The notes beneath the pieces are model-generated. The model did no database searches and was not told the origin of the DNA. It saw nothing but the letters and a program-made list of their open reading frames with translations. Positions 1 to 53,604 of a DNA stretch of 64,000 nt are shown in pieces. The DNA is taken from the NCBI GenBank assembly GCA_000004985.1, contig GG738848.1. The stretch is one strand, 5' to 3'. Position numbers and translations under genes: made by a program. Positions within the stretch are counted from its first letter, which is position 1, and each line of letters begins with the position of its first letter. The DNA is from Naegleria gruberi (lineage: Eukaryota).

Positions 1-2344
1 CTACACCCAGTACTTTAGTAATTATGAAGCAGCATTGAATAGTATTAGGGAGGCAGATAAAAATCCAAAAAACAAACGATTTTCTGAATGGTTGAAAAAG
101 ACTGATGATCGTGCTAAGGAACAGGGTCAACAAACTTTTAAACAATTATTGATTCAACCTGTTCAACGTATTCCAGTATGTTTTTTATTATATTCATTTC
201 AGTTTTTAATAACTAACTCATACTCATTTAAATATATATTTAATTGTAAATCATATTCATTTAAATATTTGCATACATGTAAATGATTTGATTTGCCACA
301 TTGTAACTTGTTAATAATTCTATCAAATGCAACTCTGTGAAATGTTGATATATCTATTCGAATGTATTAAATACAGCGTTACAATTTACTTTTATCGGAA
401 GTTTTGAAGAATACACCAAAAACTCATGTCGATTATGAAAATTTGAGAAGTGCATCAGATAAGATGAAAGAAGTTGCAGATCACTTGAATAGACAAATTA
501 CAGAAATTGAAAATAGAAACAAACTAATCAAATTGAAAGAAATTTTCGTTTTGAATAACACAGGCAAAGGTGTCATGACTAATATCGTTGAACCTCATCG
601 TAAATATGTATTTGAAGGAGAGTTACATGTTTTGAGTGAAACTTCATCTATTAACAAGCAGAAGCATTACTTTTTCTTATTTAGTGATATTATGGTTTGT
701 TGTAAGGAAGTTCCAGAAGAATTAAAGAGGAAATTAATTGAAGAAAAAAAGGCAGCTCAACAAAGTCAAGCTAATTCGAAAAAACTTGGAGGTCTCAAAA
801 TATTTTCACGTAAATCGGATGCTGGTAACTCAGATACTGACCATAATCAATTTGGTGCATTTGATGATGATGAAAACGAAATTCCAGATCATTTCTATAC
901 TATAACATTTACAATCAAATTTACTGATAAAATTGGAACGGGTAATACACCTGTCAGTTCACCAATGATGGCTGCCTCCACTCCAACAAGTCCTTCAATG
1001 GAAAGCTCAACCAACGTTGAAGAAATATGGGTCCGTGACTTTTCATTCATGGAAGGACGAAATTTCCAATTCCCAAATATTTTCCAATTGATAACAGGAA
1101 CTGAAACTTATACATTTGAATCAACTGATGCCAAGTCACGTGAGAAATGGGTTAACCATTTGAATAATACTTTGGATGAATTGAAAAAGAAGAAGAAAGA
1201 CACAACCAAAGATCGTGCAAAGGCAAAAGGTTTTCCAGTTGTTATGGTCAACTCGGCAGCTCTTGTTATTCAAGCTCTTGCTCGTGGTAAATTAACAAGA
1301 GGCAAGAAGGGAGACGTTGAAAATAGATTCAAACCTAGAAAGAAGACCACTAAGTTGAACACTAATCCATTAGGTGCTACTTCTCCATCTTCACCTACAG
1401 CTGATTCTATACCTACTGGACCTGTCACAATTGACCATACTGATGTTAATGTGACTGCTCCACCAGAAAAATCACCTAGACCAGTTGAAGAACCAATTGC
1501 AAAAGTTGAAGAACCAGTCACCAAACCAATTACACCACGTGTCATTGATGAAAATCCATCTCAAGAACCAACTAGTGTTATTGATGCTGCCACTATTCCA
1601 CCACAAACAAATGTCGTAGAAGAACCACAAGAAACATCAAAACCAGTAGAAGAACCAAAGCAAGTTGAAGTTGAAAAGCCAGTGGAAGAACCAATTGTGG
1701 AGAAACCAACAGAACCAGTTACAGAGCCATACGAGGACAATACTTCTACCACAACAACAGAAGAGGAACCAAAACCTGTTGAACCTGAAGTTGTGGATTC
1801 AGCAACAGTCGAAGAACCAAAGGTCAAGCAACCTGAAATTGAGGAACCAAAGCAACAAGTTGATCCAGGTATTACAACAACAATTGAAGAACCTGAAGAT
1901 GAAGAACCTGCCACACAGACAACTCCTGAATCAACCAATAATGATGCCATTAAGAAATCTCCTCGTGAATCCATCTCTGACGGTCTGAGATCACCTCTCT
2001 CCAGTCCAAGACTTTACAGAAAGGACAGTAATGAGGAATTCAAATCACCAACCAAAGAAGAAGATGAAGAAGTATACTTTGATGAGGAAGGAAATGTCTT
2101 ACCACCTTGGAAGGTTGAACTCATGAAGAAATTCAAAAAGTCAGGCAAATTCAATGCCATTCTTGCTCAACAAAATGATAACAAGAAGGTTGAAAAGAAG
2201 ATTGACATGCCAAATAAGAAGTTGCAATTAAATGCAATTCGTTCCATGTTTGAGGAGAAGGATAAACTTGCCAAAGAAGAAATGCACACTTTACGAAAGG
2301 CAAAGGAAAGTCCACAAAATACTTCATCTTCCTCTTTGAAATAA
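1..2344 (+). CDS. RhoGEF (DH-PH) protein, 5' end outside window. Exons 1..175 (partial) and 377..2344, intron 176..376 (GTATGT..AG). C-terminal PVEEP/PEVK-like low-complexity tail.
   Basis: Splicing exon 1 to exon 2 yields LLIQPVQRIP|RYNLLLSEVLKNT, the conserved end of a DH domain. It is followed by a PH-like segment (RKYVFEGELHVL...HYFFLFSDIMVCC). Frame continuity was checked across the junction. Confidence 0.7.
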
Positions 2345-10507: not shown

Positions 10508-12382
10508 TTATTTCAAACCATCTAAACACAATTTTAAATCATTTTTAGAACAGGGCTTTAAGAGAATTTTGTCGAAAATTTCTCTACTTTGTTCTTCCTC
10601 TGCCGTCAGAACATTTCCTGTGATTAAAATTAGTTTGAAACTATTTCCGTATAATCTCCTTAATTCTTTTCCTGCTTCCAATCCGTTCATATTGGGCATA
10701 TTCTATTTACGCATAGTATTATATATTAATATCAATTAAATATTGGTAATGAAACAAACCATATCTGTAAATACAATTTTGTGATTTTTGTAATTGTCTA
10801 AAAGCTCGCGTCCATCTGAAACTGAATCTGCAGCATATCCCAAGGTACTGAGCATTTTTAAAAGGATTTTTCTATTAACTGGATTATCTTCTGCGAGTAT
10901 GATTTCATTTTCTGATTGTTTGGAACTGGAAGCAGCTGATGAAAGTCTTAAATGTTCCTCATGAATTGTCAATTGTGACTCTACAATCCGTTCCACTGTT
11001 ACTGATTCATTATCAACAAAGTCAGCAAGTTCAAATGGTATTGTAACAGCAAAGTCACTTCCAACTCCAACTGTTGAGTCAACATTAATGGTTCCTTTCA
11101 TATGATTTAATAATATGGAAACAGTTGTTAATCCTAATCCCGAACTTGGTACCTTTGATTCATTATTATTATCCAGTTGGACAAATGGCTCAAATATTTT
11201 GGAAATCAATTCTTTAGGAATTCCCTTTCCCTTGTCTGATATTTTAAATTCAATTTTGGCTGATTTTTCATTCTTTTCCAAGATAGTAGCAGTTAGAGTT
11301 ACATTTGATTTAGGCTTGGATGCCTTGATAGAGTTAGTTAATAAATTAGAGAGTATTTGATAAATGTAAGATCTGTTGCTTTTCACTATCGTATGTGAGA
11401 GTGAATCACAAATAAAATTTAGGTTGATTTCGAATTGCTTTGCATATCCTGAAATAATATTTTGAAGATCAAAGAGACATTTTTCCAGTTCAAAACTTTC
11501 CTTCTTAATTTCATGATCAATTTTTTCTTGGTTAGTTTCATTCTCAATTCTAATTATTTGCAAAATATCCTCAATTAATAGAAGTAAAACATTGTTCGAG
11601 GAAAGGGCCATATCCACTAATTCTGTTTGTGATGAATTTAATTTAGTTTCCTTCAGTAATTCTAAGCATCCTCTGCTTGACATTATAGGACATCTAAATT
11701 CATGTGAGACATGACTCAGAAATGTATTCCTGACCGTTAAAGCTTCCTCCAATTTGGCCCTAGTTTGCTCCAACTTTTCAACCTTCATTGATAGGTATCC
11801 AGTTACGTTGACCAAACTATAAGTTAAAATCCAAAACGAGGCAGCCAATCCAAATGATTCACACAATGAAGTAATCATGTCTACCGTTAATCCGTTAGCA
11901 ATATAGTCCACTATCCCAGTATAAATTCCACATGAAACAAACAGTGTAGTAAAATATAGAGTTGGTATCAGTCCCAGAACTGTTGATTGTAAATACCACT
12001 TATTCTCAAATAGTAACCATATTATCACAGCAGGAATGAACAAAATCTTATTCGATTTGAACAAGAAATACCGTATAGTTGCCGAAACAACCCTTCCCAG
12101 CAGAATATGCCAATCCATTGTCTTGGTTGTATCCTCATTATTTAAAATATTGGCAAGACTCGATCTATTAGAAACAAACAAAAACAAGGCTATTGAAATA
12201 TTCAACAAATTCCCTATCCAATCCAAAGAAACCAATCCATATACTATTGCCAATACATTACAAATCATTAAACTCAAAACAACTCCTTTAGGTGATGAAA
12301 TCATCCTTAACAATTTCAATTCCCATTCACTTCCTTTCCTAGCTGCCACAAAATCATATACTTTAAATTCTTTCCTATTCAT
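10508..12382 (-). CDS. Hybrid histidine kinase (multi-pass N-terminal membrane region, HisKA, HATPase_c, receiver domain). Exons 12382..10760 and 10702..10508, with a 57-nt intron that uses a GTTTGT donor.
   Basis: H-box is SHEFRCP. The ATPase region contains NLLTNSIKAS...GLGLTTV. The receiver domain starts ILAEDNPVNRKILLKMLSTLGYAADSVSDG. Splicing rebuilds ...IVFTDM|NMPNMNGLEAG, which matches the DxxMPxMxG consensus. Confidence 0.8.
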
Positions 12383-12862: not shown

Positions 12863-13949
12863 TTAATCAAGGAAACCTTGAACTTTCTTTGAAGTGTAGG
12901 CACTTTGTAAGTATTCAACTTCTTCCTTGGTCAACTCAATTTCACAAGCAGCAACACTCAATTCTACATTTGCTTCCTTAGTTGCTCCAATGATTGGACT
13001 TGCAACTCCTGGCTTTGCTAATAACCAAGCGATGGCAATTTGAGCGGGAGTGTAGTTTCTCTTTTTAGCAATTTCTGAAACTCTTCTCATTGTTTCTTTG
13101 TCGCCTTCTGTCAATTGCTCAATCATTTGTTTTTGGAAGAAATCAGAGGTTGATCTTTTGGATTCTCCTTCAATTCGTTCAGTTTCGACAAAGTCATGAG
13201 CTCTAGCTAACATTCCATTAGAGAGAGGACCCCAAGGAGTGAGAGAAACCTTTTGATCGACACAGAGTGGTACCATTTCTCTTTCCTCTTCTCTGTAGAG
13301 TAAATTATACAGATTTTGCATGGAAATAAACTTGGTTAAACCTTTAGTTTCAGCATAATGTTGAGCTTTAGCAAATTGCCAAGCAAACATTGTAGAAGCG
13401 CCAATGTATCTGACCTTTCCTGACTTAACAAGTTCATGAAGAGTTTGCATGGTTTCTTCAATTGGAGTATCCTTATCCCAACGATGAATAATATACAAAT
13501 CAATATCTGAAACCATTAGTTTAGAATAAAACAAAGCAGAATAACTTACAATCAGTTCCCAATCTTTCCAAAGAGTCCTCAACAGCTTGCAAAATATGCT
13601 TTCTTGAAAGACCATGAGAATTAGGTTTCTTTTCCTTGCTAAGCAAAAGTATTTTTTGTTCACCTGATTTGTCAACTGGACCAAAAACTTTGGTAGCAAT
13701 CACAACTTGTTCTCTTGGAATGTTGTTTTCCTTAATAAATTTACCCAAGATTCTTTCACTATCTCCATTGCTATAGATATTGGCAGTATCAAAGAAGTTG
13801 ATTCCCAAGTCCCAAGCTTTCTTAAGAATTGGCATTGAGGCACTTTCGTCCAATACCCAATCTGCAAATTTTGGAGAACCGAAACTCATACAACCCAAGC
13901 TGAGTTGAGAAACCTTCAAACCAGAATTACCCAAGTTAACGTATTTCAT
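12863..13949 (-). CDS. Aldo-keto reductase (aryl-alcohol dehydrogenase / Kv-beta-like). Exons about 13949..13550 and about 13506..12863, with a 43-nt intron (GTAAGT..CAG, phase 1).
   Basis: Exon 1 ends ...GINFFDTANIYSNG...LERLGTD. Exon 2 begins YIDLYIIHRWDKDTP. Two overlapping track ORFs in different frames are joined by this intron. Coordinates here may be off by 1. Confidence 0.8.
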
Positions 13950-14350: not shown

Positions 14351-14920
14351 ATGTCTCTATCATACTCTCCTTCTGCCGCTGGTCTAAACCACAAACGCTT
14401 CACTCCCGATAATCCACTCATCATTGTTAGGAGGGTCAGAGCACCAACTGATGATCGGCCCAATATCAATGCTCAATTGGCTCCAATATTTGGACCTCTA
14501 GGAGTTTCTCCAAGAAGGGTAGGAGATCAATTGGCAAAATTTGTAAAATCTTTGAATTGGACAGCCAAGCACATCCGTGTTCGATTCATAATTAAAACAT
14601 TTTCACAATTAGATTTGGAATTGGCAGAACATTCACCACTGACGATTATTTCGAATTTAGCAGAGCCTCAACAAGTAGCTTTGGGAACTTATGCAATTCA
14701 TGATGGAAATTTAACGTTTGATCAAGTGATTCAAATTGCACAGAGTAAAAAACCAAGTAAGACTGCAAGAAATTTGACAGCAAAAGTGAAGGAAGTTTTG
14801 GGAACTTGTGTGAGTATTGGATGTACAGTGAATGGAGAGGAGCCACGAATGGTCTTGATGCAAATCAATAATGGAAGTACTGCCTATCAAATTCCAGAAA
14901 GTAATAGCTCAGATAAATGA
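14351..14920 (+). CDS. Highly divergent uL11 / RPL12-family ribosomal protein paralog.
   Basis: LAPIFGPLGVSPRRVGDQLAK, NLTFDQVIQIAQ and KEVLGTCVSIGCTVNG align with eukaryotic RPL12 blocks GPLGLSPKKVGDDIAK, NITFDEIVNIAR and KEILGTAQSVGCNVDG. By eye the identity is only about 35%. Confidence 0.65.
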   Translation: MSLSYSPSAAGLNHKRFTPDNPLIIVRRVRAPTDDRPNINAQLAPIFGPLGVSPRRVGDQLAKFVKSLNWTAKHIRVRFIIKTFSQLDLELAEHSPLTIISNLAEPQQVALGTYAIHDGNLTFDQVIQIAQSKKPSKTARNLTAKVKEVLGTCVSIGCTVNGEEPRMVLMQINNGSTAYQIPESNSSDK

Positions 14921-19540: not shown

Positions 19541-19613
19541 GGGGTCTTGGCGCAGTCGGTAGCGCGTAGGTCTCATAATCCTAAGGTCGTGAGTTCGATC
19601 CTCACAGACCCCA
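19541..19613 (+). tRNA. tRNA-Met (elongator, CAU), inverted copy of the gene at 16226..16298.
   Basis: Same sequence as the 16226 gene. About 45 bp of 5' flank is also conserved in inverted orientation. Confidence 0.85.
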
Positions 19614-19937
19614 TCTTTTTTGCATCCTTTAATTTCCAACAATGAGTGGACAATAAGTCCATAATTACACAACTTTCAGGATAATCCTTAAAACATCAAC
19701 TTCAATCAGTGAAATATGTTAATAACCCTTAGGTCAACCTTGATGTATTTCTAAAACTGTCACTTCACTTTAGCATAGTACTTTTTAATGTATTTTGCGT
19801 TAAAATGAGGCGCAAGTGCAGATAGGAACACTATCTCAATCCCTCTTTCAACTCTTCTGCAAAATGAAATCTTGGGTTTAGTGATTTTCCAAAAACAAAT
19901 AGACGGATATGTCAGAAATTTGTTATTAATAATGTTA

Positions 19938-20009
19938 GGGACCATGGTCTAGTGGTATGATTTTTGCTTTGGGTGCGAGAGGCCGTGGGTTCGATTCCCA
20001 CTGGTCCCC
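19938..20009 (+). tRNA. tRNA-Pro (UGG).
   Basis: GGGACCA..TGGTCCC acceptor and anticodon loop CTTTGGGT. Matches the canonical eukaryotic tRNA-Pro. Confidence 0.85.
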
Positions 20010-20102
20010 TTATCTTTTGTTTTAAAAGAAATCATTAAGGTACAGTTTTGCAAACCTCAGTAATATTTTTAGAACATTTCAATTCCAAAATTGTAAAATG
20101 TC

Positions 20103-20174
20103 TAGCAAATCTAGGTTTCGATCCTAGGACCTATGGGTTATGAGCCCATCGCGCTTCCGCTGCGCCAATTTGCT
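20103..20174 (-). tRNA. Initiator tRNA-Met (CAU).
   Basis: AGCAAAT..ATTTGCT acceptor, GGCGCAGCGGAAGCGC D-arm, GGGCTCATAACCC anticodon arm, and the initiator-type T-loop GATCGAAACC. Confidence 0.85.
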
Positions 20175-53365: not shown

Positions 53366-53437
53366 AGCAAATTGGCGCAGCGGAAGCGCGATGGGCTCAT
53401 AACCCATAGGTCCTAGGATCGAAACCTAGATTTGCTA
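53366..53437 (+). tRNA. Initiator tRNA-Met (CAU), copy B.
   Basis: Identical to the 20103..20174 gene. Confidence 0.85.
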
Positions 53438-53532
53438 TTCATTTTACAATTTTGGAATTGAAATGTTCTAAAAATATTACTAAGGTTTGTAAAACATGCA
53501 CCCTTAATGTTTACATCTAAAACTAAAGATAA

Positions 53533-53604
53533 GGGGACCAGTGGGAATCGAACCCACGGCCTCTCGCACCCAAAGCGAGAATCATACCACTAGACCATGG
53601 TCCC
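53533..53604 (-). tRNA. tRNA-Pro (UGG), copy B.
   Basis: Canonical TCTCGCTTTGGGTGCGAGA anticodon arm. Copy A has two C-to-T changes that convert pairs to G•U in that stem. Confidence 0.85.

Follow-up and report, generated by a model that had tools for sequence, protein, structure and literature searches.

Why should a genome keep an intact gene for a ribosomal protein that looks so unlike the rest of its own family? Few ribosomal proteins are as conserved as uL11 (RPL12), which makes up the base of the ribosomal stalk. In the 64-kb stretch of Naegleria gruberi DNA analysed here, which we call the window, one gene encodes a protein that a sequence-only reading, made without database searches, had taken for a highly divergent RPL12 paralogue, with a possible place in specialised ribosomes or a moonlighting role. 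The locus raises the questions of what this protein is, whether selection maintains it, and whether it is the ordinary uL11 of N. gruberi or something else.

The gene model and its selective constraint

The gene consists of one uninterrupted ATG-to-TGA reading frame of 189 codons with no internal stops (Table 1). Across residues 41-184, its product is 100% identical to the N. gruberi protein XP_002681996/EFC49252 (P0001), which is annotated as 'predicted protein, partial' and has a length of 144 aa; this public model goes without residues 1-40 and 185-189 of the 189-aa ORF. Comparison with a paralogue in the same genome, together with conservation across strains, backs the full ORF. We regard the ATG at 14351 as the genuine start, because the frame upstream of it is broken by indels between the window and a related strain, and because the N-terminus, MS(T)L(S/T)YSPS, is common to the second N. 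gruberi paralogue, XP_002671233.

For the comparison between strains, we used a 934-bp metagenome contig (L002) from an N. gruberi-like strain (ENA ERZ929261, run ERR1078381, project PRJEB11402). The coding sequence aligned over 570 nt with 1 difference and 0 indel columns, as against 14 differences (4.0%) and 23 indel columns over 350 aligned nt of flanking sequence (Fisher p = 1.1e-5); a neutral coding sequence changing at the rate of the flanks should show about 23 differences. The single difference, at position 14362, is synonymous (TCA/TCT, Ser), so that the two proteins are identical. On the L002 contig, indels located 5' of the ATG shift the frame; the ORF itself is untouched, and its C-terminal end is intact too. 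This pattern points to strong purifying selection on the coding sequence, which makes the gene look functional, and it agrees with the retention of the same architecture in XP_002671233 and in a distant metagenomic relative (P0022, described below). As a separate observation, the metagenome from which L002 comes contains a strain very near N. gruberi, whose intergenic DNA differs from that of the window by about 4%.

Homology to eukaryotic-type uL11

Is this protein a uL11 at all, and if so, of which type? In a phmmer search against PDB chains, the best match was mammalian uL11 (E = 6e-24, residues 16-177); archaeal L11 scored at about 1e-14, and bacterial L11 at E = 1e-3 or worse. A profile-profile alignment (hhalign) of the divergent subfamily against 30 canonical RPL12 sequences gave a probability of 100, with E = 1.5e-40 and 37% identity, and took in both domains (residues 20-184). 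The three sequence blocks from which homology to eukaryotic cytosolic RPL12 had been read are present at residues 48-63 (GPLGVSPRRVGDQLAK), 120-131 (NLTFDQVIQIAQ) and 147-162 (KEVLGTCVSIGCTVNG), and the phmmer and hhalign E values bear that homology out. The family models divide along the domains. The Pfam model of the C-terminal L11 RNA-binding domain (PF00298) passes its cut-off (46.3 bits versus 21.4, E = 6e-12), with a match that spans only profile positions 28-69 of 69 (residues 119-160), and the model of the N-terminal L11 domain (PF03946) falls below its gathering score (12.3 bits versus 32.9). The protein also falls below the cut-off of the archaeal/eukaryotic L11 equivalog model NF002232 of NCBIfam (70.4 bits versus 162) and that of the bacterial L11 model TIGR01632 (20 bits versus 142). 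The 70 bits against the former and 20 bits against the latter speak for the eukaryotic/archaeal type, rather than the bacterial or mitochondrial one, as had been suggested from the letters alone.

With every canonical RPL12 among the matches listed, the protein shares 26-44% identity, as against mostly 50-76% between pairs of canonical RPL12 sequences of the same set and about 60-75% for canonical uL11; the very low identity that had first drawn attention to the gene is thus borne out. Together with the intact single-exon reading frame under apparent purifying selection and the presence of at least one paralogue, XP_002671233, in the same genome, these results indicate that the sequence-only reading was essentially right in identifying a functional-looking, divergent paralogue of eukaryotic-type RPL12. 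Sequence comparison adds two points to it, namely that the protein belongs to a small subfamily and that its divergence is domain-specific.

The predicted structure is of the same kind. An AlphaFold model based on an alignment of 72 sequences, most of which are canonical, reached a pLDDT of 85 and a pTM of 0.74, and a single-sequence model was poor (pLDDT 40). The top Foldseek matches of the alignment-based model were all eukaryotic uL11 proteins (human, Chaetomium and yeast), with TM scores of up to 0.86 and an rmsd of 2.5 A. The protein is therefore predicted to share the two-domain uL11 fold, and its architecture resembles that of eukaryotic cytosolic uL11 (RPL12; PF03946 plus PF00298; KEGG K02870), with a TM score of 0.86 between the predicted fold and the human protein.

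A three-member subfamily and its origin

How widely is this divergent form distributed? We scanned 1.84e9 (1.84 billion) cluster representatives exhaustively with HMMER, searched 5.8e9 proteins with a profile (best 120 of 727 matches) and scanned 241 million metagenome contig records. In the HMMER scan, among the matches listed in the profile search and in the metagenome scan, only two further proteins stood above the background of canonical RPL12. The first is N. gruberi XP_002671233 (P0002; NAEGRDRAFT_73708, UniProt D2VXD6), a protein of 189 aa encoded on another scaffold, which is 57-60% identical to the protein of the window. The second, P0022, is encoded on a contig of an uncultured organism (L001; ENA metagenome contig ERZ4903137:k141_2974899, 1777 bp, 34.7% G+C) and shows 38-42% identity; its true start is probably Met16 (MSTNKHSPSPEHP). 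These two and the protein of the window make up the subfamily. The remaining matches listed were canonical RPL12, with identities of at most 44%. Another candidate, P0021, was rejected because its high score arose only from its being a tandemly duplicated plant RPL12. The metagenome scan yielded no further member, only canonical or archaeal L11/L12 with 30-38% full-length identity, and an identity of 49% was reached across one C-terminal fragment. The viral contigs scanned contained no relative, so that a viral origin is not backed, and a tblastn search found no other RPL12-like sequence elsewhere in the 64-kb window. Neither N. gruberi paralogue's accession is mentioned in the searchable literature. 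Contig L001, whose G+C content is near that of N. gruberi, also carries at 205-1197 (+), directly 5' of P0022, an ORF of 330 aa with no Pfam match.

In a neighbour-joining (NJ) tree, the three members were monophyletic in 100 of 100 bootstraps and distinct from all canonical RPL12, with root-to-tip distances of 1.2-1.4 versus 0.3-0.5 for the canonical sequences. Their sister group comprised other long branches (P0050, P0081 and P0110/P0378), a grouping that is probably due to long-branch attraction, and for this reason the origin of the subfamily cannot be placed in the NJ tree. A signature, VNGE(D/E)PR plus QINxG, is common to the subfamily and to heterolobosean canonical RPL12 (P0003, P0177 of Acrasis kona and P0179 of Heterolobosea BB2), and this hints that the subfamily may have arisen by duplication inside Heterolobosea. 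Ten residues, among them K73, L89, A92, H94, S136 and K137, are invariant in all three members and rare (<10%) in canonical sequences; the fixation of ten new residues argues for new constraints rather than plain relaxation. The subfamily thus appears to have evolved fast yet to be constrained now and, as far as these databases show, to be confined to N. gruberi and a single related organism from the environment.

Divergence along the protein

Where in the protein do the differences lie? The regions of the gene product are collected in Table 1, together with the identities of its domains to those of the two other members.

Table 1. Regions of the uL11-like gene in the window, with identity to the other two subfamily members.
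Feature	Position	Strand	Basis or remark	Identity to XP_002671233	Identity to P0022
Complete single-exon CDS, divergent uL11/RPL12-like	14351..14920	+	189 aa plus TGA		
N-terminal extension, 13 residues, MSLSYSPSAAGLN	14351..14389	+	Absent in canonical RPL12; alignment; pLDDT <50		
Degenerate internal remnant HKRFTPDNP of the MPPKFDP motif	14390..14416	+	Alignment		
N-terminal factor-facing domain, residues 23-92	14417..14626	+	PF03946, 12.3 bits; predicted fold, pLDDT 78-94	52%	25%
Linker (helix 3 and loop), residues 93-118	14627..14704	+	Canonical PPRDRKKxKNIKH replaced by EPQQVALGTYAIH	48%	25%
C-terminal rRNA-binding domain, residues 119-177, with HDGNLTFDQ and the invariant KEVLGTCVSIGCTVNGEEPR helix	14705..14881	+	PF00298	81%	62%
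C-terminal tail, residues 178-189, with an I-P-E/D motif common to the subfamily	14882..14917	+	Alignment		

All members of the subfamily begin with an extension of 13-20 residues. Because of this extension, they have no N-terminal MPPKFDP/XPK motif; in the protein of the window, the extreme N-terminus is formed instead by the extension, and the remnant of the motif is internal. Rpl12 undergoes N-terminal methylation at the XPK motif, and we infer that the paralogue cannot serve as a substrate of the N-terminal methyltransferase. The MPPKFDP motif of canonical uL11 is a binding site for the P-complex/uL10 extension, and poly-Phe synthesis falls when the motif is deleted (PMC9122527). An SPS motif occurs in all three extensions, as SYSPS in the protein of the window (14351-14374), as TYSPS in XP_002671233 (residues 1-9) and as HSPSP in P0022 (residues 16-27), and it resembles a site of proline-directed phosphorylation.

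Within the N-terminal domain, helix 1 retains its GPLG motif at residues 48-51, as it does in XP_002671233, and both N. gruberi copies share with canonical uL11 the SP site that follows it; P0022 has SPLC instead. This motif contacts eEF2, and mutants with G changed to A or P lose 68-91% of activity (PMC9122527). Because GPLG is gone in P0022, the function of the N-terminal domain may differ across the subfamily. The GGE loop is replaced by APTDDRPNINA, with the loss of its glycines G31 and G35, and K46, T65 and R84 are lost in the same domain. In the linker, the basic loop of canonical uL11 has become neutral or acidic: R108, K110, K111 and K113 are all gone, and the net charge of the linker is -3, -3 and -1 in the three members versus +4.2 +/- 1.6 in 69 canonical sequences. 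Taken as a whole, the protein is nonetheless basic (pI 9.5-9.65).

The C-terminal domain of canonical uL11 binds helices H43/H44 of the large-subunit rRNA. Conservation of 85% or more in the 69 canonical sequences is found at 41 positions, of which the three members keep 26, 30 and 24; the canonical-conserved positions between 146 and 175 are kept by all three without exception (16/16). These 16 positions sit in the KEVLGTCVSIGCxVxG helix and just after it, the region that serves in canonical uL11 for the recognition of rRNA (PMC9122527); the sequence KEVLGTCVSIGC-V-G of this helix is the same as in canonical uL11, and the HxGN motif is kept as well. Judged from these alignments, the divergence is uneven, with the C-terminal rRNA-binding core preserved and the motifs that couple uL11 to the stalk and to the translation factors lost or remodelled.

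Genomic context

The window has a G+C content of 33.5% and contains ordinary eukaryotic neighbours, among them genes for a hybrid histidine kinase, an aldo-keto reductase, a DUF676 esterase and RGS, START and GST proteins. Because these are unrelated housekeeping and signalling genes, they provide no operon-like clue to the role of the uL11-like gene. Several features of the neighbourhood may be recorded in their own right. The hybrid histidine kinase gene (10736-12382, -), about 2 kb upstream of the uL11-like gene, encodes HisKA, HATPase_c and a partial receiver domain; such kinases are usually linked with bacteria, plants and fungi. The aldo-keto reductase gene (12863-13949, -) is split between two frames, which match PF00248 profile positions 2-102 and 96-290, and this fits the presence of a single short intron between about 13520 and 13700. 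The 64 kb also contain 11 tRNA loci (16226-58125), including four tRNA-Met(CAT) and two tRNA-Pro(TGG) genes; the clusters at 19541-20174 and 53366-53604 show alike Met/Pro groupings, which suggests the duplication of a tRNA cluster.

Discussion

What might such a protein do? Through its intact C-terminal helix, it would still recognise the rRNA of the GTPase-associated centre at the uL11 site, or else an RNA of closely similar fold, and the canonical coupling to the P-stalk and the translational GTPases would no longer be possible. Because the rRNA-binding helix is intact and the factor and stalk surfaces are remodelled, we propose that the protein may sit at the stalk base in a subset of 60S or pre-60S particles. 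This could take two forms. In the first, the protein would serve as an alternative subunit, altering or damping the recruitment of factors, for instance in stage-specific ribosomes of cysts or flagellates, or in dormant ones. In the second, it would be a lineage-specific ribosomal-like assembly factor on pre-60S particles, following the logic of Mrt4/uL10 and Rlp24/eL24; Mrt4 acts at the same stalk base. To the reading that covers both forms, in which the protein binds the uL11 site uncoupled from the stalk and the GTPases, either as an alternative subunit of the stalk base or as a ribosomal-like factor, and not as the bulk housekeeping uL11, we assign a probability of about 0.5. A more specific proposal, that this is a uL11-derived ribosomal-like protein which, on pre-60S or on dormant or stage-specific 60S particles, blocks or retunes the recruitment of the P-stalk and the translational GTPases, goes further, and we hold it to be unlikely. 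In the parts of the supplements of two proteomic papers that were available (PMC8134430, PMC9035749), the accession of neither paralogue was found.

The main rival to binding at the uL11 site is an extraribosomal role, in which the protein would have been neofunctionalised into a free RNA- or protein-binding factor that works off the ribosome, its conserved C-terminal helix being used on another RNA. It owes this standing to the missing basic RNA-contact loop, since a linker charge of -3 in place of +4.2 may weaken rRNA binding. An N-terminal domain under the Pfam threshold, the ten invariant residues peculiar to the subfamily, which suggest new constraints, and a conserved SPS extension that looks like a regulatory site would all fit such a change of function. 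Against this, the best-conserved part of the protein is the very helix that recognises H43/H44 in canonical uL11, with 16 of 16 positions kept, and both N. gruberi copies retain the GPLG motif that contacts the factor. We know of no alternative target. On balance, we consider an extraribosomal role rather unlikely.

Could the two divergent copies instead be the ordinary uL11 of N. gruberi, which would then lack a canonical RPL12 and possess a strongly diverged stalk base? A canonical Naegleria RPL12 was found neither in the best 120 of 4901 matches to the heterolobosean-type canonical protein P0003 nor in the best 120 of 727 matches to the subfamily profile, although the heteroloboseans Acrasis kona and Heterolobosea sp. 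BB2 were present among the matches listed. As these figures cover only the best 120 of 4901 and the best 120 of 727, the absence of Naegleria is weak evidence. Because no canonical N. gruberi RPL12 was among the matches listed, we infer, rather than observe, that the divergent copies are not the housekeeping uL11. Several lines of indirect evidence favour a canonical copy in N. gruberi. The two copies are just 57-60% identical to each other, unlike housekeeping duplicates of ribosomal proteins, and the loss of both MPPKFDP and the basic loop in a sole uL11 would, to our knowledge, be without precedent. In N. fowleri, NF0008960 is annotated as '60S ribosomal protein L12-1-like', and in iron-limitation data its change has the same sign as that of other ribosomal protein genes (PMC7326272 supplement). 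Neither in the HMMER scan nor among the matches listed in the profile search does a protein of N. fowleri, N. lovaniensis, Willaertia or any other named organism group with the divergent trio; such a relative of the trio would have ranked first there. We therefore regard it as quite improbable that these copies are the only uL11 of the organism.

Targeting to an organelle is more improbable still. A Ser/Thr-rich extension of 13-20 residues with no acidic residue before position 20 might be read as a presequence that directs the protein to the mitochondrial ribosome, but the extension is Pro/Gly-rich and Arg-poor, the protein is of the eukaryotic/archaeal and not the bacterial type, and the mtDNA of N. 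gruberi already encodes a bacterial-type L11, NP_066519. According to the available part of the supplement on the mitochondrial proteome (PMC8134430), mass spectrometry of the mitochondrial fraction picked up NP_066519, and that part of the proteome contains neither paralogue's accession. A decaying, unexpressed or non-functional duplicate, to which the very long branch, the degenerate N-terminal domain and a public model named merely 'predicted protein, partial' might seem to point, is strongly disfavoured by the intact 189-codon ORF, by the absence of non-synonymous changes and indels over 570 nt next to flanks with 4% divergence and 23 indel columns, by the 62-81% identity of the C-terminal domain within the subfamily, and by the architecture shared with a full-length paralogue and a distant orthologue.

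How does the proposed stalk-base protein compare with known systems? With canonical uL11 it shares the predicted fold and the rRNA-binding helix, and it differs from it in its N-terminus and both of its remodelled loops, as well as in scoring below the gathering threshold for the N-terminal domain and at 70 bits against the 162 of the NCBIfam equivalog. The ribosomal-like proteins Mrt4/uL10, Rlp24/eL24, Rlp7/uL30 and Imp3/uS4 are diverged paralogues of ribosomal proteins that act in ribosome biogenesis (PMC5425277). The present subfamily is like them in that the rRNA-binding module is kept and the rest has diverged, those proteins having lost the parts that are required for work in the mature ribosome (PMC5425277). 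It is unlike them in its distribution, since they are conserved across eukaryotes and the subfamily was found, among the matches listed, in N. gruberi and on one related contig only. No uL11-derived protein is among the ribosomal-like proteins given in the same review (PMC5425277). A second comparison is with the ribosomal protein pairs invoked for specialised ribosomes, such as yeast RPL12A/B and the ribosomal protein families of plants, in which more than one gene likewise serves a ribosomal position. Such paralogue pairs are identical or nearly so (PMC5425277), whereas the N. gruberi copies share only 57-60% identity with each other and at most 44% with any canonical uL11 listed.

At the level of annotation, the outcome is a correction of the partial public gene model and names for two N. 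gruberi 'predicted proteins'. For the family, a selectively maintained uL11 copy that has the rRNA helix and lacks the coupling motifs would amount to a natural separation-of-function variant, and the subfamily could show how the stalk base tunes the recruitment of GTPases. Should the protein prove to sit on ribosomes, this deep-branching, free-living eukaryote would offer a clear example of ribosomes that differ in composition. And if the more specific proposal of a ribosomal-like protein that blocks or retunes this recruitment were true, it would be the first ribosomal-like protein known at the uL11 position, and would point to a lineage-specific way of silencing or specialising ribosomes during encystment or the differentiation of amoebae into flagellates.
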